Source of the DNA: an uncultured Erysipelotrichaceae bacterium
GTDB taxonomy: Bacteria > Bacillota_I > Bacilli_A > Erysipelotrichales > Erysipelotrichaceae
Assembly (NCBI GenBank): GCA_900315065.1
Contig: OMXQ01000006.1
Coordinates: 7,100-71,099, forward strand
DNA: 64,000 nt
Reading direction: 5' to 3'
The position numbers and the translations under genes are program-made. This document shows positions 3,692-45,816 of this stretch, piece after piece. The stretch's first letter is position 1. The number at the start of each line of letters is the position of its first letter. A model generated the notes under the pieces. It was not told the origin of the DNA, made no database searches, and saw nothing but the letters and a program-made list of their open reading frames with translations.

Positions 3692-5668
3692 ATGAAATTG
3701 ATCAAAGACAAATTGAAAAACATGCGGATAACGATCGGGATGGGGACGAACAATTTCACCATGAACCGGGGCAGCTTCCGCTATCGTCAGAAAATTGAAA
3801 AGAAAGTACCGCTTTATTGTATAAAGACGGAAGAAAACCCTGATGAAATCAGAATGATTTTTGCGGACAAAGAAAGAACAGAAATGGTAAATGCAATCTG
3901 CCGCAAAGCAGAAGCAGGATGGCAGATTCAGATCACCTGTCCGGATCAAAGTATCAACCGTTTCTGGCTGACAATGAAGCAGAACCATGAATCTTTCTAC
4001 GGGTGCGGGGAAACCTATAGTACCTTGAATCTCAAAGGTGAAAAGATCCGGATCTTTGTCGCCGAACATCAGAATACCATGCGGATCGGAAAGAAACTCA
4101 TCCGCACAAAGCTATTGGGAAAGCATCCTGAACATGTTGACCGCCTGACGGGATATGAATCCTATTATGCCCAGCCTGCTTTTGTATCAAGCGGGAAGTA
4201 TTTCGTGCATTGCGATGTCAGACAGTATTGTGAGTTTGATTTCCGCAAAGAAGATTCCTTCACCATGTATTTCCAGGAAGCGCCTTCTTTCCTGATGGCA
4301 GAAGCCGGCAGCTATGAAGCTTTGTCTTCTATATTGGCTGACAAGCTTGGTCATCAGCACGATTTGCCGGATTGGATTGATGACGGCATTATCCTGGCCA
4401 TCCAGCAGGGAACTGACGTTCTGAAGACGAAACTGGAAGAATGCAGAAAAGCAGGCATTCATGTCAACGGCATCTGGTCTCAGGACTGGTGCGGCTGCCG
4501 GAAAACGGGATTCGGCTATCAGGTCATGTGGAACTGGAAGTATGATGAAAGTCTCTACCATGATCTGCCGTCCTTCATACAGGAACTTCATCAGGAACAC
4601 ATTCACTTCCTCGGTTATATCAATCCTTTCCTGGCATTGGAAAAAGATATTTATCAGGAAGCAAAGGCAAAAGACTATTGCGTGAAGAACAAAGACGGCG
4701 AAGATTATCTGGTCAAAATCACGACTTTCCCGGCTGCCATGATCGATTTCACCAATCCGGAAGCGTATGCCTGGTACAAGAATCTGATCAAAGAAAATAT
4801 GATCGGCATCGGCATGGACGGCTGGATGGCTGACTTCGGTGAATACCTGCCGCTGGATGCAGTTCTGTACAGTAAGGAAGACCCGGCGGTACTTCATAAT
4901 CAATGGCCGGCAATCTGGGCAAAGCTTAATCGGGAAGCAATTGTTGAATCCGGTAAAGAAGGACAGGTTTTCTTCTTTACCAGAGCGGGCAATACCGGAA
5001 CAATTAAGTACAGCGATATGATGTGGACCGGCGACCAGCACGTTGACTGGTCCATGGATGACGGCCTGCCGAGTGTGATTCCTGCTTCTCTTTCGCTTGG
5101 AATGAGCGGGTTCGGGATCTCACATTCTGATGCGGGCGGCTATACAACCTTGTTTGATATGAACCGTTCCAAAGAACTTCTGCTGAGGTGGCTGGAGATG
5201 AATATCTTTTCGCCGCTGCTGCGGACACATGAGGGCAACCAGCCTGTCAGAAATGTTCAGTTTGATACCGATGAAGAAACCCTCCGTTATACAGCATTCG
5301 CATCTGCTTTGCATAAAGCATTGAAGCCTTATCTGAGGGAAGTCAGAAAAGAATGCATTGAAAAAGGAACGCCGATGATGCGGCCGCTCTTCTATCACTA
5401 TCCAGGCTTTGAAGATGAAAGAGAAGAATACCTGCTGGGCAGGGATATCCTGGTAGCTCCCATCATCAAAGAAGGTGCCTTAAAACGGGAAGTCCGTCTG
5501 CCGGACGATACCTGGATAGAAGCCGGTACCGGTAAATTGTATACAAAGGGAACCTATATAATTGATGCTCCTTTGTATCATCCGCCTGTCTTTATCAGGC
5601 AGTCATCACAATGGAAAGATTCACTGATCACAAGTATTCAGGGAAAGGAAAAATTCTATGAAAAATAA
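3692..5668 (+). CDS. yihQ: GH31 alpha-glucosidase, YihQ/sulfoquinovosidase-like
   Basis: GWMADFGEYLP nucleophile motif, MMWTGDQHVDWSMDDGL, SDAGGYTTLF, QDWCGCRKTGFGYQVMWNW segments match YihQ as recalled. Confidence 0.8.
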   Translation: MKLIKDKLKNMRITIGMGTNNFTMNRGSFRYRQKIEKKVPLYCIKTEENPDEIRMIFADKERTEMVNAICRKAEAGWQIQITCPDQSINRFWLTMKQNHESFYGCGETYSTLNLKGEKIRIFVAEHQNTMRIGKKLIRTKLLGKHPEHVDRLTGYESYYAQPAFVSSGKYFVHCDVRQYCEFDFRKEDSFTMYFQEAPSFLMAEAGSYEALSSILADKLGHQHDLPDWIDDGIILAIQQGTDVLKTKLEECRKAGIHVNGIWSQDWCGCRKTGFGYQVMWNWKYDESLYHDLPSFIQELHQEHIHFLGYINPFLALEKDIYQEAKAKDYCVKNKDGEDYLVKITTFPAAMIDFTNPEAYAWYKNLIKENMIGIGMDGWMADFGEYLPLDAVLYSKEDPAVLHNQWPAIWAKLNREAIVESGKEGQVFFFTRAGNTGTIKYSDMMWTGDQHVDWSMDDGLPSVIPASLSLGMSGFGISHSDAGGYTTLFDMNRSKELLLRWLEMNIFSPLLRTHEGNQPVRNVQFDTDEETLRYTAFASALHKALKPYLREVRKECIEKGTPMMRPLFYHYPGFEDEREEYLLGRDILVAPIIKEGALKREVRLPDDTWIEAGTGKLYTKGTYIIDAPLYHPPVFIRQSSQWKDSLITSIQGKEKFYEK

Positions 5669-7133
5669 AAACAAAGAAGATAGTCTTCTCGCCAAAGCCG
5701 GGTATGGATTTGCGGATGTTTACGGCGGCGGTGCCTTTGTCGTCATTTCTACTTTCTATACAGTCTTTCTGACCAAAGCACAATCCATGCCGGTTGCTTT
5801 AGCCGGGACAATTCCGTTAATCGGCAAGATCTGGGATGCGGTAACCGATCCGATTATGGGCAACATCGCGGATCGCACAAAATCAAAGTTCGGGGCCAAG
5901 CGTTTCTATATCCTGATCGGCAGTTTCGTGTCAGCTCTGACATTTGCTTTGATGTGGGTGCCTTTCAACGGCAATATGACAGCCCGCTACATCTTCTATG
6001 TAATGATGTATATGTTGTTCTCAACCGGATTTACCATCGTCATGGTTCCTTACAACGGCTTATTGCCGGACATGGTAGATGATTACAAGAAGCGTTCTTC
6101 CTTTACCAGCGTCAGAATGATCTTCTCAACTTTCGGCGCTATTCTTGCCGGTCTGATTCCGACTTTGTTAATCAGAGACAATACCAATGCGGCTCAGTAT
6201 ATGAGGGTCGGTCTGATCTTTGCAGTTTTATTCCTGATTGTGATTCTGCTGACCTTTGCTTTGACTTGGGAAAAGCAGAAAGAACCAGTCAGAATGAGTA
6301 TGGCTGAAAGTTTCCGCCAGTCTTTCTCCGTTTACAAAAGCAGATCCTTCCGTCTGTTTATCGGCATCTTCCTGACTGGCCAGGCAGCGGCAGATTTCTT
6401 TACCGGCTTAGCTGTGTATTACGTAGATGATGTTTTGAATGCTTACGGCGGCGGCAGGTTTACGATCCTGATGGGAGTATTGCTGATTGCCCAGTTTGTC
6501 GGTACCATTTTATTCTCATTGATCATTACGAAGAAATCCAAGCAGTTCCCGTTATTGATTACTTTCCCTTTCAGAATCATCGCAACCGCTGCACTTCTCT
6601 TCTTCTCGCATGAAGGGACTCCGTTTATTGCTATTCTGATTTTATCCTTCATGATCGGTGTTTCCATGGCAGGTACGACAACAACCATTTATGCCATTCT
6701 GAGTGATCTGGCTGATGTGGATGAATTGATTACCGGCGTATCAAGACCGGCTACAGTTTCTGCGATGGCAACTTTTATCCGCAAGGTTGCAACCGGAGCA
6801 GCATCTGCCGTGATCGGCGTATTGTTATCAATGGTCGGCTATGATGAAGTACTGGCAAGTTCCGGACAAAGACAGACAGCCTTTACCCAGCACGGCATTG
6901 CGCTCATCTTTGTCATTGCCCCGATCATCCTGAATGTCGCCGCGTATCTTTTTACGAAGACCTTCCCGATGAAGGAAAAGGAATTCGCGGTGATCAAGAA
7001 AGAAATCGCCAGAAGAAAAGGCGAAGATACAAGTATTGCGACAGAAGAAGAAAAGAAGATCTGTGCAGCTGTAACAGGCTATGCATATGAAGATCTCTGG
7101 CAGAAAGAAAATATAGAAAAGAGGACAAATTGA
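5658..7133 (+). CDS. MFS glycoside-pentoside-hexuronide (MelB/YihO-like) symporter
   Basis: WDAVTDPIMGNIADRTKSKFG motif, VPYNGLLPDM, 12-TM pattern. Confidence 0.85.
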   Translation: MKNKNKEDSLLAKAGYGFADVYGGGAFVVISTFYTVFLTKAQSMPVALAGTIPLIGKIWDAVTDPIMGNIADRTKSKFGAKRFYILIGSFVSALTFALMWVPFNGNMTARYIFYVMMYMLFSTGFTIVMVPYNGLLPDMVDDYKKRSSFTSVRMIFSTFGAILAGLIPTLLIRDNTNAAQYMRVGLIFAVLFLIVILLTFALTWEKQKEPVRMSMAESFRQSFSVYKSRSFRLFIGIFLTGQAAADFFTGLAVYYVDDVLNAYGGGRFTILMGVLLIAQFVGTILFSLIITKKSKQFPLLITFPFRIIATAALLFFSHEGTPFIAILILSFMIGVSMAGTTTTIYAILSDLADVDELITGVSRPATVSAMATFIRKVATGAASAVIGVLLSMVGYDEVLASSGQRQTAFTQHGIALIFVIAPIILNVAAYLFTKTFPMKEKEFAVIKKEIARRKGEDTSIATEEEKKICAAVTGYAYEDLWQKENIEKRTN

Positions 7134-13962: not shown

Positions 13963-14068
13963 AGTTGATTTCTCCTGCTTTCATTATAGTGGAATTTACC
14001 CTGTCGTTTTGAAAAAAAAGGTTGCACGGAACATACCCGCTATGATAATATATTCGAGCACCATTGAT

Positions 14069-14145
14069 GGCAAGTTGGTGAAGCGGCTTAACACACCGCC
14101 CTTTCACGGCGGCACTCACGGGTTCGAATCCCGTACTTGTCACCA
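14069..14145 (+). tRNA. tRNA-Glu (TTC)
   Basis: Cloverleaf; anticodon arm CCGCC-CT-TTC-AC-GGCGG; GGTTCGAATCC T-arm; encoded CCA. Confidence 0.95.
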
Positions 14146-14152
14146 TTTTATT

Positions 14153-14226
14153 AGGGGTATCGTACAATGGTAGTACATCGGTCTCCAAAACCGCTGATGG
14201 GAGTTCGATTCTCTCTACCCCTGCCA
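14153..14226 (+). tRNA. tRNA-Trp (CCA); prophage integration target
   Basis: AGGGGTA acceptor stem, TCGGT-CT-CCA-AA-ACCGC anticodon arm, encoded CCA. Confidence 0.93.
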
Positions 14227-14227
14227 T
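14219..14227 (+). repeat. att core CCCTGCCAT (left junction, tRNA-Trp 3' end)
   Basis: Identical 9-mer at 48447-48455; joining the two restores a longer integrase ORF followed by a terminator. Confidence 0.8.
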
Positions 14228-16250: not shown

Positions 16251-16377
16251 TGTACGGCTTGCCTGTGATTTCTTCGTACTGTTCCGGTGTGATCCATGCG
16301 TTAGGTTCTACTGCGGCGCGTAATGATTCGTCATTCAGCCGGCCAGCGTTGTAAAGTCTTTTCAATCTTTCAAACAT
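16219..16377 (-). CDS. XkdX family protein (52 aa), not in the ORF track
   Basis: MFERLKRLYNAGRL...WITPEQYEEITGKPY translated by hand; TGATG coupling with upstream gene. Confidence 0.8.
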   Translation of the reverse strand: MFERLKRLYNAGRLNDESLRAAVEPNAWITPEQYEEITGKPYNDPESEETGE

Positions 16378-16646
16378 CAGAATAACCCTCCCATAAGAAT
16401 TGATACGGTCAAGTCGTCGATTGCTTCGTTCATTTCGGCCATTTCAGCTTTGTGCTGCAGCTGGTACTCCGTGATTGTGATTTCCCGGCTTTCGCATACC
16501 CATTCGGTATATGCTTCCGTGCCGGCGTCTTCATCAGCGTCGTGTACCACCGACCGGATATTCCGGCGCTGAATTAAAAAGCCGTCCGCGATCGCTTCGA
16601 CCTCAGCCGGCTGCTGTGAGCAGTGTTCCTCTTTCCATTCTGTCAT
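16377..16646 (-). CDS. Small tail-associated protein (XkdW-like position), 89 aa
   Basis: MTEWKEEHCSQ...AIDDLTVSILMGGLF; precedes XkdX; start overlaps the RT 3' end. Confidence 0.6.
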   Translation of the reverse strand: MTEWKEEHCSQQPAEVEAIADGFLIQRRNIRSVVHDADEDAGTEAYTEWVCESREITITEYQLQHKAEMAEMNEAIDDLTVSILMGGLF

Positions 16647-17757
16647 GCTGTTTATTTTCCTTTCTGTCCAGCCGTGAAACAAGCTGTTTCAAACGTTTCA
16701 CGTTTATGAATGGCTTTATATGCTGCAGATAACATGCGTACGAATCGGTGTATGTAAACCAGCCCATGTACGAAATCATAGCCTGCGCATGTCTCTTGAA
16801 TATCCGGCCGCCGGATTCTTTCCTGCGGCGGATCCGCTTTGCCATCCGTGTTGCTTTTAACATGATCCGCTTTCGGATCGTTACTGTAAAACGCCAGAAA
16901 ATGAAGCCCATAAAATCAAGGGGCTGTCCTTTTTCTTTATAAATGAATTTATTCACCTGGTAATTGTTTTTTAGCTTTAAGCGGAAGCGTCGCCCGATCA
17001 GCTTTTTGATTTCAACGATCAGGGCATGCAGCTTTCGCTTGTTTGGTCCGAATATCACAATGTCGTCCATATACCGCAGATAAATATCAAAACCGGATTC
17101 CGTTATAAACCGGTCCAGCGGTTCCAGCAGGTAATTGGCCAGCCATTGCGACAGGTAAAAGCCCAGAACTAAGCCGCGCCGGAAGCCTTCGTAGCATTTC
17201 CGGATGATATACAGAAACCAGTCGTCTTTTATCCGGGTCGCCAATTCCCTGATCATGATATCCATCCGGATACTATCAAAAAAGTGCCGGATATCCAGCT
17301 TGGCGAAATACTTAATGTTTTTACCTTTAGCAATCATCCGGCGCAGCTGGCGCATGCCATAGTGCGCGCCTTTCTTCGGCAGCGATCCGCAGGAAAACGG
17401 ATATGCTGTCCGTTCAATGATCGGCTGCAGAACAATAGCGATAATATGATGCAGCCATTGTTCGTGGATCTCCGGTTTGTACGTTGTGCGCCACTTTCCG
17501 TGTTCGTAGCGTCGTACCGCTTTATGTTTTGGCGGCGTGAATGCTTTTTCCGGTTCCGGCACTTCGCATGGCCTGGTATTGTAAATCATTTCCCGCATTG
17601 CCTGGCGTTCTTCTTCGTAATTCAGTTCTATATTGATAATCTCTGGCCTGTTGGTTTTATGCCGGCGCAGATTCTTAAAAGCCAGATCAATGACATCATT
17701 GTCCAGCATTCTGCGCCATAAATATTTGTATTGTTTGTTGCTTTGGTTCATTTTCAT
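16603..17757 (-). CDS. DGR reverse transcriptase
   Basis: YFAKLDIRHFFDSI, GLVLGFYLSQWLANY (DGR-type SQ motif), LRYMDDIVIF, LDFMGF; adjacent TR/VR pair. Confidence 0.95.
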   Translation of the reverse strand: MKMNQSNKQYKYLWRRMLDNDVIDLAFKNLRRHKTNRPEIINIELNYEEERQAMREMIYNTRPCEVPEPEKAFTPPKHKAVRRYEHGKWRTTYKPEIHEQWLHHIIAIVLQPIIERTAYPFSCGSLPKKGAHYGMRQLRRMIAKGKNIKYFAKLDIRHFFDSIRMDIMIRELATRIKDDWFLYIIRKCYEGFRRGLVLGFYLSQWLANYLLEPLDRFITESGFDIYLRYMDDIVIFGPNKRKLHALIVEIKKLIGRRFRLKLKNNYQVNKFIYKEKGQPLDFMGFIFWRFTVTIRKRIMLKATRMAKRIRRRKESGGRIFKRHAQAMISYMGWFTYTDSYACYLQHIKPFINVKRLKQLVSRLDRKENKQHDRMERGTLLTAAG

Positions 17758-17882
17758 ACAGTGATTTCTTTCTATCCTCTACCGGAGCGCAGGTGCGACC
17801 GCTTTACGTCCGGCCCTGTATCGAGTTTATTTCCACTCATCTTTCCAATAATGGCGAGTAAACGGCGTTTCAGCCGTCAGTG

Positions 17883-18087
17883 GTGTAGGATATCGAGCCG
17901 CATTTAATAGATTTCAAGATAGAAAATAGGGCGCCGCGCCATTGTTCCAGTTCGTATTGCCGGCCGTATTGTTCCAATTGCGAGCACGCGGCCCGCCATT
18001 TGCACCATTGTTGCAATTAGCAAAGCGAAGACAGACCGCCGACAGGCGGACAAGAACCCACTACGGCACGGCCCGATACCCCTACAC
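17883..18087 (-). ncRNA. Putative DGR template RNA core (TR enclosed by complementary flanks)
   Basis: GTGTAGGGGTATCGGGCCGT (18087-18068) pairs with GCGGCTCGATATCCTACAC (17901-17883) on the - strand. Confidence 0.6.
17929..18041 (-). repeat. DGR template repeat (TR), 113 bp
   Basis: Aligns without gaps to 18192-18304; 25 coding-strand adenines in 11 AAY, 2 ACG and 1 GCA codons. Confidence 0.97.
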
Positions 18088-18124
18088 AAATATTCAATTT
18101 TTAAAAATCCAACATTCCAGTGAC

Positions 18125-18172
18125 AAGGGGGAGAGCCCCCTTTGAACCCCCCGATGCGTCACGCTGTGACGC
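18125..18172. other. Two hairpins downstream of VR (candidate DGR homing cruciform elements)
   Basis: GCGTCAC-3nt-GTGACGC (18156-18172, overlaps target stop) and AAGGGGG-4nt-CCCCCTT (18125-18142). Confidence 0.7.
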
Positions 18173-19463
18173 CTACAGGTGGAAGAAGAACGGGCGCCGC
18201 GCCAAAGATCCAGGCCGCATTGCCGGCCGCAACGCTCCAATCGCGAGCACGCGGCCCGCCAGAAGCACCAAAGGCGCAATTAGCAAAGCGAAGACAGACC
18301 GCCGTGATGGTATTCTGATTTTCCGACGTATACGTACCGTCGCACGATGCCAGGGAAGTGCTTCCACGTCCGCCGTTAATTACCGGCACGCTTCCGTATC
18401 CTGGTATTGTTTTGAAAATGTGCGCATATTTCCACCCACTTGTCGGCGTTACTCCATCCGGAAAAACATCGATACCCGTATCAACATACGAAGCGCCGGT
18501 CGGATCATAGTTGTAATTCAGTCCTACCTTTACACGGCCGTTTACAATCACTTCGTACGGATCGCGCATATACTGATTCTGCGTGATCGGCACAATACTG
18601 TGGAAAACCTTATTCAGGGACTTATTGTCATTTGTTCCATAAAACATTCCCCCATTTACTACGGCATTAACCAGCATACCGTGCGTAGCCGTATCCGAAC
18701 TGTCGTACCCGTTCATATTACCATGACCGTATGCGCCCTGTAAGCCTGAAGTTTTTGCAAACATCATCAGAAGATCGATCAGTGTTTCCATAAGCCCGCC
18801 GCCAAGAAAATGTGCACGGCTTGAGAAGTTCTTAATATAAGTGTTCTGCGTTGCTGTGTTATGCGACATATCAGTCAGCAACCCGGAGATTGATTTCAGC
18901 TTGGAATCAACCAAGGCGCCGTAAAACATCGGAAGCCATACGCCTTCCAGCTCGTTGCCGTCCGGATCGATAAATCCGACTGCTGTAAATCCGGGCCTTT
19001 TTTCGAACGAAAACATAACATACCGGTCATTTCCCTGCATTACCTCGCGCTTATAAATTTTCGTGATCCAGGAAAAAGCGCCGCCGTCATATTCTGTATT
19101 CGCTACGTCGGAATTTCCACCGGCTGCCTTCTTTGAATAGTCGTTTTCATTCAGCTGATAATCTGGCACGCCATTACTGTGAACCATCCACGGCTTGCAG
19201 GCCGTGATCAGTGGGAAAGCCGCCCAGCTGTTAAGCTCGCACGTACCGGTCGAAAGATCCACGCTCAGCGGTGTATATGCGGCATTTACGCCGATATACT
19301 CAATGCGCTGCGCCGGTGCCAGAGTTTCGCAGTGCTCAATGAATCCATAAATGCCGTTAATTTCCGGAATGCCCAATCCGCTGCGAATGCCGCGCAGCTG
19401 TTCGATGAGTTCGTCCATCTGGTCATGATCCGGAAGCGGTAATTCTTTAATCAATTCTGCCAT
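18159..19463 (-). CDS. DGR target protein; putative receptor-binding/tail protein with C-terminal variable (CLec-like) region
   Basis: VR lies in its last ~50 codons; located after BppU in the tail module; CLec fold inferred from known DGR targets. Confidence 0.88.
   Translation of the reverse strand: MAELIKELPLPDHDQMDELIEQLRGIRSGLGIPEINGIYGFIEHCETLAPAQRIEYIGVNAAYTPLSVDLSTGTCELNSWAAFPLITACKPWMVHSNGVPDYQLNENDYSKKAAGGNSDVANTEYDGGAFSWITKIYKREVMQGNDRYVMFSFEKRPGFTAVGFIDPDGNELEGVWLPMFYGALVDSKLKSISGLLTDMSHNTATQNTYIKNFSSRAHFLGGGLMETLIDLLMMFAKTSGLQGAYGHGNMNGYDSSDTATHGMLVNAVVNGGMFYGTNDNKSLNKVFHSIVPITQNQYMRDPYEVIVNGRVKVGLNYNYDPTGASYVDTGIDVFPDGVTPTSGWKYAHIFKTIPGYGSVPVINGGRGSTSLASCDGTYTSENQNTITAVCLRFANCAFGASGGPRARDWSVAAGNAAWIFGAAPVLLPPVGVTA
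18192..18304 (-). repeat. DGR variable repeat (VR), 113 bp
   Basis: 18 mismatches to TR, all at TR adenines; 0 mismatches at 88 non-A positions. Confidence 0.97.
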
Positions 19464-19469
19464 ATGCTT

Positions 19470-20129
19470 TTATTCTCCTTCCTTATATCGCATGTACATG
19501 ATTCCGTCTGCCGCCTTTACATAAAAGCTGTAAGAAGCGGCGCCGGCATAGCCGGCCGCGTCGTCCCTGAACTGTTCAGCTTCATCGCGATATTCTTTAG
19601 CCTGATTTTTGTAGGCCAGAGCATCACTTGCGCTGCCAGCTGCCGCCGATGCACTGGACGAGGCTGCAGCTGCTTTTTCGGTTGCTGTCTGTGCTGCCGC
19701 AAGTGCCTGCGCAATATTTGCCACTGCTTCCATTACAGCCTGCATATCAGAATCAGAAATTACTGCATCATTTAGCGGCCCCGGTTCTACCATCATGATG
19801 AAATTCGCGGAACCGATGATTTCGGATCCGTTTTGCAGCATGACTTCCATAATAACAGGGCCTGGGCATGCGCTCATCTGTTCCTGCATGCCAATCGTTA
19901 CAGCTGCGGATTCTGTATCCACGGTCCCTTCATACGAGAAGCCTTTGCCGTCCGCCTTTTTGCCGTTCACCAGAGCCACGGTTCCGGACGGAATAGTAAA
20001 TTCCGATCCGCGGGCATGCAGCAGAAATTTCAGCTTTCGCCAGGTCTTATCAGTCTGCGAAACGTGGATCACCGGCACTACTGCGCCGGGTATGATATCC
20101 AGCTTCAATTCTATTGTCTGTGTTGCCAT
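19470..20129 (-). CDS. BppU-family upper baseplate protein
   Basis: VIHVSQTDK...GKKADGKG...EIIGSANFIMMVEPGP N-terminal domain plus Ala/Ser-rich coiled linker; start at MATQTI with AAGGGG SD. Confidence 0.8.
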   Translation of the reverse strand: MATQTIELKLDIIPGAVVPVIHVSQTDKTWRKLKFLLHARGSEFTIPSGTVALVNGKKADGKGFSYEGTVDTESAAVTIGMQEQMSACPGPVIMEVMLQNGSEIIGSANFIMMVEPGPLNDAVISDSDMQAVMEAVANIAQALAAAQTATEKAAAASSSASAAAGSASDALAYKNQAKEYRDEAEQFRDDAAGYAGAASYSFYVKAADGIMYMRYKEGE

Positions 20130-20146
20130 GATTTCCCCTTTCTGTT

Positions 20147-22897
20147 TTATTTGCCAAGTACGGCATGGCCGTTCCCGTCGTTGACGAAACCGAGCCCGTC
20201 GTAACCACTGCCGTTTATGTGAATACATAGCCCTTTGGCTGAATCGATTCCAATTGATGTATTTCCAAGCCTTAATTGTACCAAGCTATCCGATATCGTT
20301 AACTTTGCGTTACCCCTGGTTATGGTTATTTCGCCGGTGGCTGTTATGCTTATCGTTCCTTGAGAGATCATTGAAATTCCGCCGGCGGCTTGGAACATCA
20401 GCTTCGCCGTTTCTGTTAGGGCGACATAGCAGGATCCTCCGGTATCGTTGGCGATATATAACCCGGGGTTCGTGCTCGCTTGGTTATTATTTCTGTTATC
20501 GATGTGGCGTGAAGAATTGCCAAACTGAATATTTAAACGATGATCGTTCGCTGTACCGATTCGTGCCGGCAGATCTTGGCTGTAAAAATTGTAGGATCCG
20601 TTAACAAGCAAGGCAGTATTATAAGCGTCAGCGTCATTCTTTGCGTGTATAAATAACCCGTAAATCGTTTTGGTTTGCTGATCAACATAATCGTAAATAC
20701 TAAAATGCCCGCCGTTTGCGCGGACCGGAACCGTGGACAGATTGAAATCAAAAGTGAATCCTGACAATATTCCGGCGAGTATGTATTCCGCATTTATATA
20801 AAGCTGTCCGTTCTGCATAGTGATACCCTGCACGGTGCCGTTATCTGTCAGTCTATTAAACACTTCTTCACTGTCGAGGGAATTATCCAGCGCGGTAACG
20901 GCTGAATCATCGGTATATTTGTTCAGCTTTTGCCAATCAGCTGCAGCATACTGTGCGCCGGCGGCTTTTGCGGTCGTACACGTCAGGATGTCACCGCTTG
21001 ATCCCGTACACCAAAGATCACCTGTATCGTATGGCGGCACCGGCCTTGTTATGAATACGCGGCGTTTACCGTCTGCGGTGTCTTGAGCGTCGGAAGCGGC
21101 CGCCATTGCTGCGCTGATATCTTCGTCTGATATCCGGGTCCATACGTATGATCCGTTATCGAGCATGAACCGGTAAGCGTATCCCGTATCTTTGTCGTAA
21201 TAAAGATCACCTATATGGTTGTCTTTATCCGTCGTTGTCGCCCACTGTGATGCCGGAAGATTCGCCAGTGTTGGCGCTCCTGTGTAATACCAGGTCGTTA
21301 TATTCCCGTCGATCTGGTTCTGCAGGTCCGCAATATCCGGATTGTATGTAGCTGTAACGAAATCAGACAATGCCGCAGATGATGCTGCGGCCGCGATCTG
21401 TGCAGCCGTCTGGTTTCCGATCAATGTACCGGGTGCCAGCCGGAATTCGCCAGTGTCAAGGTTCCAGTAATTGTTTTCCTGCGCGTCCTGAATGATTCCG
21501 CCGATGATCTGTGCCGCATAAATGCGTAGCGTGTTCATCAGTTCCGTGGTAAATGATCCGTCCTGCATCCAGGCTGATACATACGGACCGTTTATACCGT
21601 TATGAGAATATGCGATGCCGTTCAGATTTTCCCGGCGGATATTGACCGCCGTTTCGATACTGTCGGTATCCAGCCAGTATTCTTCCTGAATGCGGCCGAG
21701 CGCGTCACGGACTATATATTTATGACCGCCGGATATACCTGTCATCATATCGGTGTTTTTCTTTATTGCCGTTTCCATAAACCCGAGCGCGCGTTCTGTT
21801 TCCTTCGTGATCTGTTCCTGCGTCTGCGCTATGGTCTTTGCCAATGTGCTGCGCACATTTCCCAGGTGAATGGAAATATACCGCTCTTTCAGAATGTCGT
21901 ACGTGTATTCCGTCACACGCGCCGACGCTTCAATATTCAGCGGTTCAAAGTTCACATGTACCGTGTCGAAAAGGTTCACCCGTTCCAGCGGCGCGATGTT
22001 TTTGTACTGTTCCGTCTGCCATAAAGCGACGAAAGAAACATCGATCGAAACTGTCGGCTTGTCCAGGTTGCTAGCTTCAATATATGCACGGCATCGTTCG
22101 TCGATCGCCGCCGGCGTGATCGTTGCGTCCTGGTCGAAATATTCCGAAAGATCCAGATTCAAAACACGCGGCTGATCGCTTGGCATGATCGTCTGCAGAT
22201 TGCCGAGAATCGTTGTAGTGCTCTCGCTGTTCTGCTGAATGACATACGGCATTACAGCTGTGTACATGTTTTCGATGCTTTCTTCCTGCTTTATGTCTGT
22301 CAGATTTTTGCCATACGAAATACGCACACCGTTATCCTGGCCACGGTGCACATGGTGCCGCACGGTCAGGTTATCCCACTCGTATTCCCCGCCGAATAAA
22401 TCCAAGATAGATCCGGATACGCCACCCAGGCAAGCCCGGAAGCTCTGCGGTATCTGCAGGTTAAACTGTGCCGTGTTATTCGTGCTGCCGCTTATCAGGT
22501 CGAACGGGTACAGCTCGGCATTTACCAGGTGCGACTTAATGCCGGCGCATGCCGCCTGTGCTCCGATCGCAGTAAACGGAAGCACCGATGTTTTGGCTAG
22601 GTCATACGTAATATGCTGGCACTGGATCTCTATTTTGCCATTCATCGGCTTGGAGATCTTTTTTATGCGGAATAACTGCAGGCTTGCTGTGTCGTTTGGC
22701 TTTGCCTTAATGATTCCGCCATAATGTAAATCATTGAAATGCCGACCACTCACCGGATACACAAGCGTAACCGTGTATGCGCCGTTTGCCACTTCATTGC
22801 ATTCTGCTTTTAAGCAGTCAAGCCGGCCGAGCCCGTTTGTCTGGTCCTGTGACAGCTCCGCCAGTGATTTACTATCGTCCATCAGTATTGGTTTCAT
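20147..22897 (-). CDS. Tail-associated lysin/tail spike (Tal, phage minor structural protein)
   Basis: NGLGRL, QLFRI, AQHITYDL-like, FGGEYEWDN, YGKNLTD, VNLFDTVHV motifs; follows Dit. Confidence 0.85.
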   Translation of the reverse strand: MKPILMDDSKSLAELSQDQTNGLGRLDCLKAECNEVANGAYTVTLVYPVSGRHFNDLHYGGIIKAKPNDTASLQLFRIKKISKPMNGKIEIQCQHITYDLAKTSVLPFTAIGAQAACAGIKSHLVNAELYPFDLISGSTNNTAQFNLQIPQSFRACLGGVSGSILDLFGGEYEWDNLTVRHHVHRGQDNGVRISYGKNLTDIKQEESIENMYTAVMPYVIQQNSESTTTILGNLQTIMPSDQPRVLNLDLSEYFDQDATITPAAIDERCRAYIEASNLDKPTVSIDVSFVALWQTEQYKNIAPLERVNLFDTVHVNFEPLNIEASARVTEYTYDILKERYISIHLGNVRSTLAKTIAQTQEQITKETERALGFMETAIKKNTDMMTGISGGHKYIVRDALGRIQEEYWLDTDSIETAVNIRRENLNGIAYSHNGINGPYVSAWMQDGSFTTELMNTLRIYAAQIIGGIIQDAQENNYWNLDTGEFRLAPGTLIGNQTAAQIAAAASSAALSDFVTATYNPDIADLQNQIDGNITTWYYTGAPTLANLPASQWATTTDKDNHIGDLYYDKDTGYAYRFMLDNGSYVWTRISDEDISAAMAAASDAQDTADGKRRVFITRPVPPYDTGDLWCTGSSGDILTCTTAKAAGAQYAAADWQKLNKYTDDSAVTALDNSLDSEEVFNRLTDNGTVQGITMQNGQLYINAEYILAGILSGFTFDFNLSTVPVRANGGHFSIYDYVDQQTKTIYGLFIHAKNDADAYNTALLVNGSYNFYSQDLPARIGTANDHRLNIQFGNSSRHIDNRNNNQASTNPGLYIANDTGGSCYVALTETAKLMFQAAGGISMISQGTISITATGEITITRGNAKLTISDSLVQLRLGNTSIGIDSAKGLCIHINGSGYDGLGFVNDGNGHAVLGK

Positions 22898-23610
22898 ATT
22901 GTCCACCACCTCGGTTTAATCTGTAAATTAACCGTATTTCCTGCAAAAATGTAGTTCTCGCCAGGTACCAGCTCCGGAAACTTGTATCCGGAAAAAGATA
23001 CCGCGCTGTTTTTGTTTGTCGTTCCATCGAAGCATTCCTGTATCTCGCTGTCGATTGTTATAGACCCGCTGTTTTCTGCGACCTGTGCCGTTACATCATT
23101 CACCTGGAAGGTTCCTGTTCCGGTTACGATTATTTCCGGCTTTGCGGTATATTCACACGGGTTCCAGATCTTCATTGCTTCCCCGGCGTTTACCCTGAAA
23201 GCAATTTCACCGGATTTAAGGAAACGCTGCGGCATACAGTCGAATTCAAGCGTGAACGATCCGGAAGACACGGCATGCACTTTCGGATCAAACGGGCCGG
23301 CGTACGCCGCCATCCTGAATTCATCCGGATGATATGTGTCTTCCAGTCTCTGATAACCGGCAGTCGATAGCAGAAAAGCGCGAAGCGCTGCAATACTGTG
23401 GTCAAAGTCTTCCGTGATATATGCTTCGTATGGAATTGTTATGTTTTTGAATTTTCCGTTATCGATTAAAAGGTCCCCGGATCGTCCGGGAACCTCTTGC
23501 TTTTCGATATCTCTTTGCGGCGCGGCGAATGTTCCGTTTCCGGATATCTTCGTATTGAATTCGAGCGAAGACCGGCCGTTATATGTGAAGTAGTGAAATG
23601 GTATACTCAT
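22894..23610 (-). CDS. Distal tail protein (Dit)
   Basis: FTYNGRSS, VPGRSGDL, GYQRLEDTYHPDEFRMA, FDCMPQRF, IKPRWWTI. Confidence 0.85.
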   Translation of the reverse strand: MSIPFHYFTYNGRSSLEFNTKISGNGTFAAPQRDIEKQEVPGRSGDLLIDNGKFKNITIPYEAYITEDFDHSIAALRAFLLSTAGYQRLEDTYHPDEFRMAAYAGPFDPKVHAVSSGSFTLEFDCMPQRFLKSGEIAFRVNAGEAMKIWNPCEYTAKPEIIVTGTGTFQVNDVTAQVAENSGSITIDSEIQECFDGTTNKNSAVSFSGYKFPELVPGENYIFAGNTVNLQIKPRWWTI

Positions 23611-34912: not shown

Positions 34913-36166
34913 TTAATTTGAGTTAGATAACCGCCGGACGATCTCTTTTTCCCGCTCGGATAGATCCCACTTGTATGCCGTAGCCTTTTCAGCGGCGGCC
35001 TTTTCAGCGGCGGCCTTTTCGGCGGCGGCCTTTTCGGCGGCGGCCTTTTCGGCGGCTTTCTGTTCAGATATCAGATAACCGTTTCCGAATATGGCCTTGC
35101 CGTATTCTTTCTGCATGTCCAGCGCGCTGATCCGCTCCGTTTCTGATAAGCTGGCGGAAAACTGCACGCCGTGTTTGCTCAGGTATTGAAGGCCGGCAGC
35201 TGTCACTACATAATCCGGATATGAATATTTCGGCAGCTCCGTTCTGTTCTGCTTTCGGTTTTCTTCGTCCGCAGCCTTTACAGCTTCGTAAAGGTCCGGC
35301 GCCGATCGGAAGCGTTTCCCGTCTTCCAGGTTTGTAATAAATGATGTTGCGACGACGGCTCCGTTTTCATATGTAACCGGCGCACCGACGACAACGGCAC
35401 AGGAAGAAGAAGAAGAAGAAAAGATGGTCAGCGACGGTGCGAAAAGAAAAAAGCGGATATTCCGCTCCGTGTAAAATCGCACGATTTCCGCCAGAATCGA
35501 AAACGGCGGATTGTCCATCACGATGCAACCAGGCGGGTATTTTTCGTTTGTATAGTCCCCCCCCGGATAGAACGGCCGTATGAACGTCGCCGGGTTCACA
35601 TTGTACTCATTCTGCACCCATCCGGATATTGCATTGTACACGATCGCCGGCGTATAACAGTCGTCCGTTGTTTTCTTTTGTTCGAATTTATCCACGAAAT
35701 TGTTATATTCTTCGTTTCCGTCTTCGTGGCTTTTTCCTTCCTGTTCTCTGTCTTTGAACCATTCGTTATCGGCCTGCAGTTTATCCGGATCGAAAGCGAA
35801 AAGGCTCATATCGATATCTGTTATTTCCGCCAGTTCTTCGCCAAGCAGCTGCAGATCCCAGCAGGCAAGCTCTGCCGTTTTGTTATCGGCAAGCCTGAAC
35901 GCCTTTATCTGTTCATCGCTCAGATCGTCAGCTATGACGCAAGGCACGGTTTTAAGTCCCAGCCGGCTAGCGGCTTTTAGCCTGGTATGTCCGGCAACGA
36001 TTACATTGTTCCGGTCAATGACGATCGGTACCTTAAATCCGAATTCTTTTATACTGGCGGCCGTCGCATCCACTGCCGCGTCGTTCTTTCGCGGGTTTTT
36101 CGCGTACGGTATAAGCTCCGTAATATTTACGTCGTATATCTGCATTTCTGGTCCTTTCTCAGCCAA
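34913..36166 (-). CDS. ParB-like N-terminal domain fused to a putative N6-adenine DNA methyltransferase
   Basis: PYAKNPRKN...FGFKVPIV...IVAGHTR ParB motifs; DDCYTP and DNPPFS motifs. Confidence 0.75.
   Translation of the reverse strand: MAEKGPEMQIYDVNITELIPYAKNPRKNDAAVDATAASIKEFGFKVPIVIDRNNVIVAGHTRLKAASRLGLKTVPCVIADDLSDEQIKAFRLADNKTAELACWDLQLLGEELAEITDIDMSLFAFDPDKLQADNEWFKDREQEGKSHEDGNEEYNNFVDKFEQKKTTDDCYTPAIVYNAISGWVQNEYNVNPATFIRPFYPGGDYTNEKYPPGCIVMDNPPFSILAEIVRFYTERNIRFFLFAPSLTIFSSSSSSCAVVVGAPVTYENGAVVATSFITNLEDGKRFRSAPDLYEAVKAADEENRKQNRTELPKYSYPDYVVTAAGLQYLSKHGVQFSASLSETERISALDMQKEYGKAIFGNGYLISEQKAAEKAAAEKAAAEKAAAEKAAAEKATAYKWDLSEREKEIVRRLSNSN
34983..35057 (-). repeat. Five tandem 15-bp repeats encoding (AAEKA)n
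   Basis: GCCTTTTCRGCGGCG x5, in frame. Confidence 0.95.
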
Positions 36167-36262
36167 TACCCCCTCGGCTTCAAAATCCGGCGCACTTGGA
36201 AATTTTGACCCGCGCCATTAAGCAAGCCGTTTTAACTCCGCCGCGGGGCGGGGGGGATACTG
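36167..36262. other. Probable cos/packaging region
   Basis: Non-coding gap between HNH and the packaging operon with CCCCCCGCCCC and GGGGG runs; HNH plus P27 terS layout typical of cos phages. Confidence 0.5.
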
Positions 36263-36541
36263 TTAGAAGCGGCGCAAGTGTCCGCGCTCGTTCGCGGCTC
36301 TGATCTTCTCCGGATGTTGCTTGTTATGGCATGAATGGCACAGCGATATCAGATTGCTGTCGTCCAGCGCAAGCTCCGGCCATTCATCAAAGTGTTTTAT
36401 ATGGTGCACTTCCCACGCATCAACATGCCGGCCGTATCGTTTGCACAGCTGGCATTCGTAACCGTCACGGCGCAGGATAGCACGGCGTTTCGCTTTCCAT
36501 TTTGCTGAATTATAAAATTCTTCAGCTGCTAAACTTTTCAT
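36263..36541 (-). CDS. HNH endonuclease (terminase-associated)
   Basis: CQLC...EVHHIK...NLISLCHSCHNKQH. Confidence 0.9.
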   Translation of the reverse strand: MKSLAAEEFYNSAKWKAKRRAILRRDGYECQLCKRYGRHVDAWEVHHIKHFDEWPELALDDSNLISLCHSCHNKQHPEKIRAANERGHLRRF

Positions 36542-36718
36542 GTTTTCACCTATCGAATTAAAAACACAGCCGGGCGTGATCGCTGTTATACGAAAGGAGG
36601 CGGCTTGCAGAAAACTAATAAAAGACAAGCTCTTTATTTATTCACTCCCGGCTATGCCCGGCCAAAAATAAAGCCGCACGTTATCCCCTTCGTGCGGTTC
36701 TATTTCCAGTTACGCGCA

Positions 36719-37192
36719 TTATATCACAGGTTTGTCTATTGCCGCGGCAACTTTTGCGTATCTCAGCAGGATATCGTTCTTCTTTTTCCGGATCGCTTCC
36801 TTCGAATAGTTCACGCGTTCTCCTATCAGCCAAAGCGGCAAGCGTTCATCATAATATGCGCACACGATCTCTATTTCTTCCGGCGTGCACTCACTCTGCA
36901 GAAAGCTGGCAAGCTCGTACAATACAGCTTCCGACGCTCTGTATTTAGTGGCCGTCTCTGTTTCTTCGCTTATCAGCTCCGCAATATTACAGTGATATAT
37001 CACGGTGCCGCGCTGGTATTTTGCTTCTTCCGGATCGCGAATTGCAGGACTTCGCACCGTTCCTTTCAGCTGTTCCGCGATCTCGTCCAGCCTGTCGCCA
37101 TATTTCAGCAGCATGCTGAAGTGATAGCTTACAGACCTGAATACACCGTCAGCGTACCGGATCATTTCCTGATCTTCATCCGTGTAAATCAT
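36719..37192 (-). CDS. Putative late transcriptional activator (ArpU/RinA-like position, C-terminal HTH)
   Basis: LWLIGERVNYSKEAIRKKK HTH-like segment; last gene before the packaging region, followed by a terminator-like hairpin. Confidence 0.55.
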   Translation of the reverse strand: MIYTDEDQEMIRYADGVFRSVSYHFSMLLKYGDRLDEIAEQLKGTVRSPAIRDPEEAKYQRGTVIYHCNIAELISEETETATKYRASEAVLYELASFLQSECTPEEIEIVCAYYDERLPLWLIGERVNYSKEAIRKKKNDILLRYAKVAAAIDKPVI

Positions 37193-37593
37193 TCGTTATT
37201 CCATCCTTTGAAATAGATCTCCACGTTGTCGATATCTTTACGGTTTACTGTTATCACCGTGCCGGAATCATCCGGAACAATAATGCCTGTGCCAGATTTC
37301 AGCTTGTCATACTGCGATAATTCTTTTTTCAGCTGCCGGATTTCTTCGCGATATCCTTCGTTCTGGCGGCTCAGCCTTCCGATCAGATGTTCCTGTTCTT
37401 CTGCATTCTGCACTTTTTCTTCCAGAATCCGGATATGTTCGGCGCGTGCTTTAATTTCCGTTTCCATGCTTTTAATTCTCTCGCGGTACTGGTTTATTTC
37501 CGCTTCCTGGTAAGCGATCGCCTGATCTGGCGTGATTATTCCGCGGCCGTGGCCGATTCTTCGCATGATCTCTGCGACGTCCATTTCATCCAT
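37189..37593 (-). CDS. Coiled-coil hypothetical protein
   Basis: In operon, ATGA-coupled. Confidence 0.6.
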   Translation of the reverse strand: MDEMDVAEIMRRIGHGRGIITPDQAIAYQEAEINQYRERIKSMETEIKARAEHIRILEEKVQNAEEQEHLIGRLSRQNEGYREEIRQLKKELSQYDKLKSGTGIIVPDDSGTVITVNRKDIDNVEIYFKGWNNE

Positions 37594-37726
37594 TTTTCCG
37601 TTCTCCTTTACTTATGTCTTCAATCAGCACAATGGCAATAACGAATATCAGCCCGATGGCCATAATCAGGCCAAGCACCGCGCCCAAAACAAGCAGATAA
37701 TATTCGATGTGTGATATTACCATCAT
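37586..37726 (-). CDS. Small single-TM protein (46 aa)
   Basis: MMVISHIEYYLLVLGAVLGLIMAIGLIFVIAIVLIEDISKGERKNG, translated by hand; fills the gap. Confidence 0.55.
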   Translation of the reverse strand: MMVISHIEYYLLVLGAVLGLIMAIGLIFVIAIVLIEDISKGERKNG

Positions 37727-38280
37727 GCTGATTTCCCTTCTATTGCGATTTTCGCCGGTTCCGCAACAAGCGCCACGTTTTCCGGCTTATTCATCGGCAG
37801 ACCTTTCAGCTGTTCCCGGCGTGCCTTTTTAAGTCCTTCGTAAGCCTTTACGAATTGCGTTTTCTGGAATCCGTTAACCTCTGCACTGGTTAAATCGTAC
37901 GCGAATGTTTTCATTTCAGCCGGCGACGTCACGGCGCGGATTTTTTCGGGCAGCTGTTCCCAGGCTTCACGCGCGCTTTCGTAAGATCCAAGTTGGCAGA
38001 ATGCTTTCCGGTAGATTTCCCAGGCACGCTCCGGCGTGTCTTCCTGGTCTTCCAGCGCTATGGCCATCTGTTCGCGGATATCTGCAGGCAGCGGCGCAAA
38101 GTGCATCGTCTGCATACAAATTTTCACCGCCGGCATTACCATTTCGAACGGCTCCGGGAATAACTGCTGCCAGATTCTCGCTTCCGTGTCCACGTCTTCA
38201 GCCGTCAGCCCATTGCTTGCGGTAATGTGATACGTCGAACGGATCATAGCCAGAATCGTTTTCGTTTCCTTCAGGTTCAT
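37723..38280 (-). CDS. Replicative helicase loader/inhibitor (G39P-like)
   Basis: MNLKETKTILAMIRSTY...FAPLPADIRE; directly after replication initiator. Confidence 0.7.
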   Translation of the reverse strand: MNLKETKTILAMIRSTYHITASNGLTAEDVDTEARIWQQLFPEPFEMVMPAVKICMQTMHFAPLPADIREQMAIALEDQEDTPERAWEIYRKAFCQLGSYESAREAWEQLPEKIRAVTSPAEMKTFAYDLTSAEVNGFQKTQFVKAYEGLKKARREQLKGLPMNKPENVALVAEPAKIAIEGKSA

Positions 38281-39143: not shown

Positions 39144-39198
39144 GTTGCTTTCTCGTAAGCTCCGGTGCCGCCTATAATAAACGGCACCGCGCTTTCCT

Positions 39199-39366
39199 TT
39201 ACTTTCCTGCTTTCAGGTCTCTTTCAAGCTGGCGCTTTCTCCGGTTCAGCTTTTCCAGTGCCCTGCGCAGGTCCTGCCGGCGCTTGTGGCTGCGTGTCAT
39301 TGCCAAGCCTTCCTGCGTTTCTTCGATCCGCTGCTTTATCATGTTCAGTTGTTCATTCGTAGTCAT
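39199..39366 (-). CDS. Basic coiled-coil hypothetical protein
   Basis: MTTNEQLNMIKQRIEE...; in operon. Confidence 0.55.
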   Translation of the reverse strand: MTTNEQLNMIKQRIEETQEGLAMTRSHKRRQDLRRALEKLNRRKRQLERDLKAGK

Positions 39367-39481
39367 GATCAACCCCTGCCCGCAATATTGCAGGCACGAC
39401 AATCATCATGAAGATGTTGCCGGCCACGAATCCGGCGGTGGCTCCGATCAATAAGCCTGCCGAAAATTTAATAATCTGCAT
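39353..39481 (-). CDS. Small single-TM protein (42 aa)
   Basis: MQIIKFSAGLLIGATAGFVAGNIFMMIVVPAILRAGVDHDYE, translated by hand. Confidence 0.5.
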   Translation of the reverse strand: MQIIKFSAGLLIGATAGFVAGNIFMMIVVPAILRAGVDHDYE

Positions 39482-39500
39482 TTCTAAGGATCCTCACTTC

Positions 39501-40137: not shown

Positions 40138-40141
40138 GATC

Positions 40142-41098: not shown

Positions 41099-41099
41099 A

Positions 41100-41426: not shown

Positions 41427-41443
41427 TTTTCGATTTCCCTTTC

Positions 41444-43618: not shown

Positions 43619-43620
43619 GG

Positions 43621-45301: not shown

Positions 45302-45354
45302 TTTCCTTCCTTTCATTTCCTGCTAAAATGCAGGTGGCTTTTAATAAAAGCCGG

Positions 45355-45800: not shown

Positions 45801-45816
45801 TGCGTTTCTCCTTTCT

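Follow-up and report, generated by a model that had tools for sequence, protein, structure and literature searches.

The 64,000-nt window, which is the whole stretch of DNA that was analysed, contains a diversity-generating retroelement (DGR) that is very probably functional, that carries no accessory gene and that recodes a putative receptor-binding tail protein of a prophage. The cassette comprises a target gene with its VR, a hairpin, a TR, an RT-4 spacer RNA and a reverse transcriptase (RT) gene, in this order. All genes of the DGR region are on the minus strand, along which the features are as follows:

18159-19463, minus strand: DGR target gene, encoding a 434-aa Mtd/TaqVP-like tail protein, putative receptor-binding protein
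18192-18304, minus strand: VR, codons 388-424 of the target, with 13 diversified codons
18192-18203, minus strand: GC-only run of 12 nt (GGCGCGGCGCCC) at the 3′ end of VR; the identical run ends TR (17929-17940)
18125-18142, minus strand: hairpin AAGGGGG-CUCU-CCCCCUU, just past the target stop codon
18068-18082, minus strand: 5′ arm of the TR-enclosing stem, pairing with 17887-17901
17929-18041, minus strand: TR, non-coding, with 25 adenines; the sole TR in the genome
17918-17924, minus strand: UUCUAUC motif, 4 nt after the GC run of TR, complementary to the 3′ tail of RT-4 (GAUAGAA, 17770-17776)
17887-17901, minus strand: 3′ arm of the TR-enclosing stem, abutting the first base of RT-4
17770-17887, minus strand: RT-4 RNA (Rfam RF03025), the structured TR-RT spacer, matched over its full length (1-118) with 126.3 bits, where the gathering score is 73.5 bits
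16603-17757, minus strand: DGR RT, 384 aa from the first ATG (RVT_1, phrog_1423)

TR and VR align without gaps over 113 nt at an offset of 263 nt, and the pair was also recovered independently by a repeat search (family D1). All 18 mismatches are at TR adenines (18 of the 25 adenines and none of the 88 other bases), comprising eight A-to-T, seven A-to-G and three A-to-C substitutions. The probability that 18 mismatched sites would all fall within the 25 adenine sites is 1.4e-15 (hypergeometric), which rules out a chance duplication as the origin of the repeats. The TR adenines belong to 11 AAY codons, two ACG codons and one GCA codon; the AAY and ACG codons permit 15^11 x 4^2 = 1.38e14 variants, free of stop codons. 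The translation of TR ends in ANCNNGANGGPRARNWNNTAGNTNWNNGAAP and that of VR in ANCAFGASGGPRARDWSVAAGNAAWIFGAAP. An earlier note, made from the letters of the window, had described a complete DGR at 16603-19463 with about 1e14 protein variants. Its repeat coordinates, gapless alignment, adenine counts and translations were all reproduced, and the limits of its span coincide with the stop of the RT and the start of the target. Beyond the shared GC-only run the sequences of TR and VR diverge, and this run at the 3′ edge of their homology is IMH-like and may, by analogy, function as an IMH. When the 2.5-Mb genome was searched with a TR pattern in which each adenine could be any base, allowing up to three mismatches, only TR and the one VR matched, and no further VR or remote target was found.

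The VR occupies the 3′ end of a gene for a protein with a predicted ligand-binding fold of the C-type-lectin kind. The target matches the profile of a tail protein family (phrog_5302, E 7e-74). The earlier note had proposed a structure prediction for its C-terminus; the AF2 model of the protein (pLDDT 84.7) is best matched by a known DGR variable protein, TaqVP (5vf4; Foldseek E 1e-9, probability 1.00), and its matches among viral structures (TM up to 0.83) carry the name "tail collar fiber protein". The DGR closes the tail module of a temperate, siphovirus-type prophage of about 34 kb in a gut or rumen bacterium. The phage is mobile: a contig from another sample (L002, 34,278 bp) joins window positions 14219-14227 to 48447-48455, the junction of the excised phage form. 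A search of a phage collection for near-identical DNA returned no match. Upstream of the target, the tail-tip module consists of:

22894-23610, minus strand: Dit, distal tail protein, at the start of the module (phrog_33, E 4e-30; weak match to Pfam Sipho_tail)
20147-22909, minus strand: Tal-like tail-associated protein, 920 aa, with a Prophage_tail domain (PF06605, E 5.5e-18)
19470-20228, minus strand: putative small tail/baseplate adaptor directly upstream of the target (phrog_19280/16573; sub-threshold match to BppU_N)

The assignments of Dit and Tal, made from profile matches, are solid, and several PHROG tail families also match the Tal-like protein. The adaptor, which gene callers start at about 20128 for a product of 219 aa, corresponds in its position to the "tail-collar fibre protein" of Faecalibacterium phage FP_Epona. 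The earlier note had spoken of a BppU-type baseplate; this reading is weak, because the BppU_N match of the adaptor (E 0.0025, 18 bits) falls below the cut-off of 23.1 bits.

Gene position, fold similarity and the annotation of the FP_Epona homologue suggest that the target is the host-receptor-binding protein (RBP). It is rather improbable that an active DGR diversifies something else here, such as an accessory adhesin directed at mucus, glycans or further surfaces, or a tail-tip protein of different function. Position and fold are the sole grounds for assigning receptor binding, the large Tal-like protein has a C-terminal beta-helical match and could itself carry this function, and the DGRs of other gut phages diversify Hoc-like decoration proteins and not RBPs (PMC5883640). 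However, the target directly follows Dit, Tal and the adaptor, which is where the RBPs of siphoviruses lie; the structures that match the whole protein are models of tail-collar and tail-fibre proteins together with TaqVP, which shares the Mtd-type architecture; and phages that lack the DGR keep a homologue in the same position, as expected of an essential part of the tail tip.

The RT is a basic protein (pI 10.2) for which gene callers prefer the methionine at residue 17 as the start, giving 368 aa. Its profile matches are to RVT_1 of Pfam (E 1.3e-18) and to phrog_1423 (E 8e-79). The SQ and YMDD motifs noticed earlier were located at residues 198 (LGFYLSQ) and 229, respectively, and thus the protein has both the [ILV]GxxxSQ of motif 4 and the YxDD of DGR-type RTs. 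Its best relative of solved structure is a 328-aa RT (entries 8ub7-8ube, E 7e-14), which we take to be the Bordetella DGR bRT; the two motifs align with IGSLTSQ and YMDD of 8ub7. Elsewhere in the genome, contig C107 gave another RT hit (25% identity, E 1e-5), which has no relation to the DGR cassette.

The DGR has recently been active in nature. Three independent metagenome contigs from other samples, L001 (9.1 kb aligned to the window), L002 (9.1 kb) and L003 (4.1 kb), show 20, 19 and 19 mismatches within VR, respectively, none in TR, and only zero to two differences elsewhere (the two being stray differences in L003). The four VR alleles of these contigs and the window contain 61 substitutions, all 61 at TR adenines; each of the 25 adenines is substituted in at least one allele, and no other base is. 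Transfer is one-way, from TR to VR, with VR varying in populations while TR stays constant. In a 90% protein cluster with 14 full-length members, variation is found at exactly the 13 codons that contain TR adenines, with three to ten residues per site, and the remaining VR positions are invariant. The earlier note's claim of a complete DGR with mutagenic retrohoming on a tail protein is thereby borne out, since VR has been rewritten from TR on an otherwise matching phage backbone. Its further inference from the substitution of 72% of the adenines, near saturation and hence many rounds of homing, does not follow. The alleles are substituted at 8, 13, 18 and 22 of the 25 adenines, a range that fits single events; substitutions do not accumulate because every homing event replaces the whole VR with fresh cDNA, and a single cDNA of BPP-1 has substitutions at about 50% of the TR adenines (PMC6182149).

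The VR allele of the window is identical in at least five samples from at least three projects, and by this recurrence the allele is stable in lysogens and switching is episodic. The same recurrence would also be compatible with a relic, that is, a DGR once active and now silent in this lineage, whose VR alleles are old polymorphisms maintained by selection or reshuffled by recombination. Such a history is highly improbable. Old alleles would be expected on diverged flanks, yet backbones that are near-identical over 4-9 kb differ at 19-20 sites of VR; the confinement of every substitution to TR adenines would require the same underlying process even if old alleles were being recombined; and all parts are intact, the RT orf being complete with its catalytic YMDD, RT-4 being of full length and TR having kept every AAY codon.

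The layout of the cassette is the same in 39 of the 45 genome loci that have a target homologue, with mismatches overwhelmingly at TR adenines and zero to two elsewhere. RT-4, the 3′ end of which is 13 nt before the RT start codon, occupies the same place in each of the 29 genome loci with an RT that were tested, as it does in FP_Epona (30 of 30). From the RT-less homologous loci the hairpin, TR and RT-4 are missing together (RT-4 in 0 of 5, the hairpin absent in 5 of 5). Weinberg 2017 linked the RT motifs to DGRs in general terms; a literature search for RT-4 together with DGRs, or for RF03025, found no paper.

The TR is enclosed by a stem of 13-15 bp. Among 31 sequences, compensatory changes occur at nine of 13 pairs and the proportion of paired cells is 94%, compared with 48-70% for slid controls, and the covariation score of the whole structure was reached by none of 500 shuffles. 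The stem is also present in the MFE fold, with the first RT-4 hairpin directly downstream. The support for the RNA structure is covariation and not energy, because the MFE stability of the whole RNA is unexceptional (z -1.1). Structurally the stem has the form of the cPRT-stop-like duplex of Handa et al. (bioRxiv 2023.10.23.563531) and resembles the one known from Bordetella, and by analogy a role in stopping or priming would be a candidate function. Another candidate element is the UUCUAUC motif, which in 22 of 31 relatives pairs at 7 of 7 positions and at a fixed offset with GAUAGAA and may form a template:primer duplex with it; because the two sides hardly vary, the pairing is beyond covariation testing. 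The G5/C5 arms of the hairpin past the target gene are invariant in all 31 DGR-bearing loci whereas its loop varies in size; it is a candidate for either a target-site hairpin/cruciform or the terminator of the target gene. A scan for sigma-70 promoters around TR gave one 9/12 match (18126-18097), not above the shuffled expectation.

A basic four-helix-bundle Avd, as found in the BPP-1-type Architecture B (avd-TR-RT), is absent from the cassette. The 401 nt from the target stop to the RT start are filled by TR and RT-4, leaving no room for an Avd gene. The Avd profile PF05635, which did match in the positive-control genome, found nothing in the genome itself, in a cultured host genome or in FP_Epona; Acetatifactor muris yielded just two matches, both below threshold and located on other contigs. 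Since the conservation of Avd genes is poor, a very divergent helper could evade a Pfam profile search. Dependence on such a helper, either a very divergent Avd-like protein or some other small protein of phage or host, is an unlikely though serious alternative: the RT of BPP-1 is inactive alone and requires Avd (PMC6182149), and Cornuault et al. proposed that another small protein might serve (PMC5883640). The obvious candidate is an 89-aa orf (ORF89, 16377-16646) that overlaps the 3′ end of the RT gene and is conserved in FP_Epona with 44% identity. It was rejected as a substitute for Avd. Its product is acidic (pI 4.25, compared with about 9.5 for the basic Avd) and matches nothing in Pfam or NCBIfam even at E 10, and the orf belongs to the tail/lysis module, since it directly follows the tail gene in DGR-less relatives. 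The occupied gap and the negative PF05635 searches likewise count against a helper.

A bolder possibility, with less than even chances, is that the RT-4-bearing lineage, which includes this phage, FP_Epona and dozens of prophages of Lachnospiraceae/Clostridia, carries out mutagenic retrohoming with no protein partner. The 118-nt RT-4 and the longer, very basic RT would together replace the Avd scaffold, the TR-enclosing stem would be the cPRT stop, and GAUAGAA/UUCUAUC would be the template:primer duplex.

In the mechanism proposed for the DGR in general, which is part of the main reading, the transcript would hold TR in a loop closed by the flanking stem and followed by the RT-4 structure. The RT would bind this TR/RT-4 transcript and copy TR to cDNA, misincorporating solely at adenines, with synthesis probably primed in cis. 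The cDNA would then replace the 113 nt of VR in the 3′-terminal part of the gene for the tail protein, recoding the 11 AAY and two ACG codons into up to 1.4e14 variants on the surface of a C-type-lectin-like tip, and the receptor-binding specificity of the phage would change as a result.

As a DGR the element is ordinary, since phages of the gut and rumen often have DGRs and a cassette with 53% identity, that of FP_Epona, is already published. It provides an unusually clean natural demonstration of activity, in which 9-kb backbones match and the differences are at TR-adenine positions of VR. It also connects RT-4, an orphan motif of Rfam, with the spacer between TR and RT in a DGR lineage that lacks Avd and in which a TR-enclosing duplex, previously surveyed only in Avd-bearing DGRs, is conserved by covariation. 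If the system has no protein partner, it would be a minimal two-component DGR of one protein and one RNA, would explain what the orphan motif RT-4 does, and would offer a simpler chassis for the DGR-based targeted-mutagenesis tools under development.

The closest described relative is that of FP_Epona (MG711462; Cornuault et al. 2018, PMC5883640), which has the same order of Mtd-like target, gap with TR and RT-4, RT, small orf, XkdX and lysis genes, and in which likewise no Avd was found. Its target, annotated as a "BPP-1-like major tropism determinant," and its 384-aa RT are 53% and 51% identical, respectively, to those described here, and its target-RT gap of about 445 nt contains TR and RT-4 (124 bits). 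The published description makes no mention of RT-4 RNA, a TR-enclosing stem or a hairpin. FP_Epona differs in the family of its host and in its baseplate, which is that of a P2-type myovirus with J-like and I-like proteins, in contrast to the siphovirus-type tail-tip genes Dit and Tal here.

The prototype, BPP-1 (mtd-avd-TR-brt), is alike in the C-terminal location of VR in a tail protein, the position of TR upstream of RT, the adenine-only substitutions, the GC-rich 3′ end common to VR and TR, and a structured RNA between TR and RT. The earlier note had described mutagenic retrohoming as in BPP-1; this is common to both, but the avd gene of BPP-1 is absent here and the spacer RNA is RT-4 and not the RT-10 of BPP-1 (PMC5737381). 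In addition, the RT exceeds bRT in length by about 55 aa, the TR-enclosing duplex has its upstream strand in non-coding sequence whereas in BPP-1 this strand is inside avd, and the G5/C5 stem of the hairpin, about 50 nt after VR, differs from that of BPP-1. The fold similarity of Mtd to the target is weak (Foldseek E 0.02-0.07, probability at most 0.08). TaqVP of Thermus aquaticus, the variable protein of a DGR, has its lectin-like variable domain at the C-terminus and aligns with the predicted target over about 380-400 columns, at 12% identity, TM 0.43-0.52 and an rmsd of about 9 Å; it is a bacterial protein, unlike the phage tail protein described here.

By its gene content the cassette belongs to a known, less-studied kind of Avd-less DGR, Architecture A of Wu et al. 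(2018, PMC5758913), with the same target-TR-RT core and no avd, HRDC, MSL or CH1. Architecture A accounts for 29% of the 372 DGRs in that study, in which Avd-independent homing was inferred, and an Avd-free system in this phage would help to show how this accessory-gene-less 29% functions.

The diversity-generating retroelement (DGR) that an earlier note proposed for the window from sequence alone is genuine. The region was read on both strands, and all cassette genes lie on the minus strand, which is the coding strand here. The template region (TR, 17929-18041) and the variable region (VR, 18192-18304) form an ungapped alignment of 113 nt, and an independent repeat search recovers the pair as family D1. 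Read on the coding strand, the pair has 18 mismatches, every one at a TR adenine (18 of 25 adenines versus none of the 88 other bases), a pattern with a chance probability of 1.4e-15 (hypergeometric). Translation reproduces the TR and VR peptides of the earlier note, and its codon tally (eleven AAY and two ACG, to which one silent GCA is added) and its figure for possible protein variants (15^11 x 4^2 = 1.4e14) are likewise correct. The closest solved structure to the reverse transcriptase (RT) is a 328-aa reverse transcriptase (entries 8ub7-8ube, E 7e-14), which we take to be the Bordetella DGR RT and with which both RT motifs align. The window's own genome assembly (2.5 Mb, 144 contigs) contains one TR, one VR and one DGR RT; a distant second RT-like frame on another contig (C107:10740-11117), which may come from a group II intron, a retron or a defence RT, has 25% identity to residues 64-191 of the DGR RT (E 1e-5).

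Features of the cassette and the surrounding prophage
14219-14227, left core copy, within the 3′ end of tRNA-Trp (14153-14226)
16377-16646, minus strand, 89-aa ORF, matching phrog_20201 with no Pfam match, overlapping the RT 3′ end by 44 nt
16603-17757, minus strand, RT ORF, 384 aa, with LGFYLSQ and YMDD motifs, matching RVT_1 and phrog_1423
18159-19463, minus strand, target tail protein gene, 434 aa
19470-20228, minus strand, small adaptor ORF between Tal and the target, BppU_N match sub-threshold
20147-22909, minus strand, Tal
22894-23610, minus strand, Dit
48447-48455, right core copy, inside the 3′ end of the serine-integrase gene (46931-48490)

The cassette is located at the end of a prophage tail module. 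In the sense of transcription (descending coordinates), the gene order begins with terminase, portal, capsid and tape measure; Dit, Tal and the adaptor ORF come next, followed by the target, TR, RT, the 89-aa ORF, XkdX, endolysin and a Dp-1 holin. Host genes (RarA/MgsA ATPase, tRNAs) lie on either side of the prophage. The core CCCTGCCAT, common to both prophage ends, adjoins the serine-integrase gene, and on the metagenome contig L002 (34,278 bp) it joins 14219-14227 of the window to 48447-48455 (junction region L002 9200-9305). L002 is the excised form of the phage, which is therefore about 34.2 kb long and mobile; since the right core copy lies inside the integrase gene, excision alters the integrase C-terminus (541 aa excised versus 519 aa integrated). 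Just beyond the prophage ends are two tRNA-Glu(UUC) genes (14041-14146 and 48502-48604) with 92% identity over 106 nt, including about 25 nt of common upstream sequence. The project and sample names of the assembly (PRJEB21624, STEW19-1) suggest cattle rumen as its source.

The target protein, whose gene carries the VR at its 3′ end, has no family match in Pfam or NCBIfam, and matches phrog_5302 ("tail protein") in PHROGs. Among PDB entries, its AF2 model (mean pLDDT 84.7 with 47 homologues as input) comes closest to TaqVP, a DGR variable protein (5vf4), which it matches along almost its entire length (E 1e-9, probability 1.00), with Mtd variants as weak matches (E 0.02-0.07); in a viral structure library the top matches are tail-collar or tail-fibre models (TM up to 0.83). 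Among cultured phages, only the Faecalibacterium phage FP_Epona (MG711462) has a homologue above 50% identity, annotated as "BPP-1-like major tropism determinant protein". A perfect 7-bp hairpin (GCGUCAC-AGC-GUGACGC, 18156-18172, minus strand) spans the last codons and stop of the target gene; none of the relatives in the spacer-region alignment showed this exact sequence.

Evidence of activity comes from both protein and DNA comparisons. The 90%-identity cluster of the target protein comprises 33 sequences; among the 14 full-length members compared, the VR peptide varies solely at the 13 positions encoded by adenine-containing TR codons, with 3-10 different residues at each, and five members are identical outside the VR. 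Three contigs from other metagenome samples, compared over 9.1 kb (L001, L002) or 4.1 kb (L003), differ from the window at 20, 19 and 19 VR positions respectively and at none in the TR; apart from two stray differences in L003, they match the window throughout the compared spans. The four VR alleles have 18, 8, 13 and 22 substitutions relative to the TR, all 61 at TR adenines, and each of the 25 adenines is changed at least once. This is the signature of repeated mutagenic homing from TR to VR, on a shared phage backbone too young for other mutations to have accumulated. The 72% substitution of the window's allele had been read as saturation after many rounds of homing, a reading that fails: each homing event replaces the VR in full, a single BPP-1 cDNA already has about 50% of its adenines changed (PMC6182149), and the four alleles here range from 32% to 88%. 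At least five samples from at least three projects contain the window's VR allele without change, so an allele is maintained within a lysogen lineage and switching occurs in episodes. Besides the samples of L001-L003, the metagenomes behind contigs L054-L057 also carry the phage.

A scan of relatives, one genome per species, yielded 45 loci with a target homologue, mostly in Lachnospiraceae and other Clostridia, cultured strains among them. The cultivable carriers of this cassette include the F. prausnitzii lysogen of FP_Epona, Acetatifactor muris DSM 23669 and Clostridium sp. OF03-18AA. The layout is the same in 39 of the loci, with the TR about 100-200 nt and the RT about 400-470 nt past the target stop, and TR adenines account for the overwhelming majority of their TR/VR mismatches, 0-2 falling elsewhere. 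In L026 the target-like frame that was picked stops at 3291 without a TR beside it, and the RT (5588-6730) and the associated RNA RT-4 (5437-5553) come later in the locus; a tandem pair of target paralogues, or a non-adjacent target, may account for this. Five loci (L029, L037, L038, L047, L050) encode the tail protein without an RT, four of them well inside contigs and L047 with only about 115 nt of downstream sequence. Within the sequence available, all five lack the TR, a G5/C5 hairpin that otherwise follows the target stop, and the Rfam RNA RT-4 (RF03025), so the hairpin, TR, RT-4 and RT behave together as a single cassette placed between two tail/lysis genes. At the C-termini of the RT-less homologues the scaffold is retained (e.g. 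...W..G.A.LL.PPVGV..) and the "variable" positions carry fixed residues; these proteins are useful natural controls for what a DGR adds.

The helper protein Avd is missing. The 401 nt from target stop to RT start are occupied by the hairpin, TR and RT-4, and six-frame searches for Avd (PF05635) gave no match in the window's own genome, though the positive control genome did match; nor was there a match in FP_Epona, in which Cornuault et al. (PMC5883640) likewise found none, or in one cultured carrier genome. The 89-aa ORF was considered as an accessory gene and ruled out: it is acidic (pI 4.25, versus an average of about 9.5 for Avd; Wu et al., PMC5758913), and its homologue directly follows the tail gene in RT-less loci (at least L029 and L038). 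This ORF, 44% identical to its FP_Epona counterpart, is probably part of the tail/lysis module, in an XkdW-like position before XkdX. The cassette fits Architecture A of Wu et al., which lacks Avd, accounts for 29% of 372 DGRs and led those authors to infer Avd-independent homing.

RT-4 matches the TR-RT spacer at full length (126 bits, threshold 73.5); all 29 RT-bearing genome loci tested have it, as does FP_Epona. Weinberg et al. (PMC5737381) described it as one of 19 RT-associated motifs; they placed RT-10 at the corresponding site of BPP-1 and speculated that further DGRs make use of other RT motifs. In an alignment of 31 spacer regions, 18068-18082 upstream of the TR pairs with 17887-17901 downstream, abutting RT-4; compensatory changes occur at 9 of 13 pairs, 94% of cells are paired (slid controls 48-70%), and none of 500 shuffles reached the covariation score. 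This stem corresponds to the upstream:downstream "cPRT stop" duplex of the Bordetella RNP, predicted for 207 Avd-bearing DGRs (Handa et al., bioRxiv 2023.10.23.563531); on the evidence of sequence covariation, the predicted duplex is shown here to extend to an Avd-less lineage. Four nt past the GC run of the TR, UUCUAUC (17918-17924, minus strand) is the complement of GAUAGAA (17770-17776, minus strand), the unpaired and invariant 3′ tail of RT-4. In 22 of 31 relatives all 7 bases match at a constant spacing, with both sides so nearly invariant that covariation is uninformative; the match may be a long-range pairing or a priming duplex, and is a candidate template:primer duplex. The G5/C5 hairpin, invariant and DGR-specific, may be a target-site hairpin, a terminator, or both.

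Two by-products of the analysis are the most useful: RT-4 gains a functional place, and covariation backs the TR-enclosing duplex in an Avd-less lineage. The DGR itself is recently active and of a kind already known, Avd-less and FP_Epona-like. The likeness to BPP-1 drawn in the earlier note holds for mutagenic homing from TR to VR, but not for Avd, which is missing, or for the spacer RNA, which belongs to a different family. The BppU-type baseplate proposed there has weak support: the BppU_N match of the adaptor ORF is below threshold, and in FP_Epona this module is found with a baseplate of P2 type. In FP_Epona (35250-46431) the module order is the same (tail-collar protein, Mtd-like target, RT-4, RT, small ORF, XkdX), but the baseplate there is that of a P2-type myovirus, whereas in the window phage the module follows siphovirus Dit and Tal genes; the module of DGR and receptor-binding protein appears to move between tail types.
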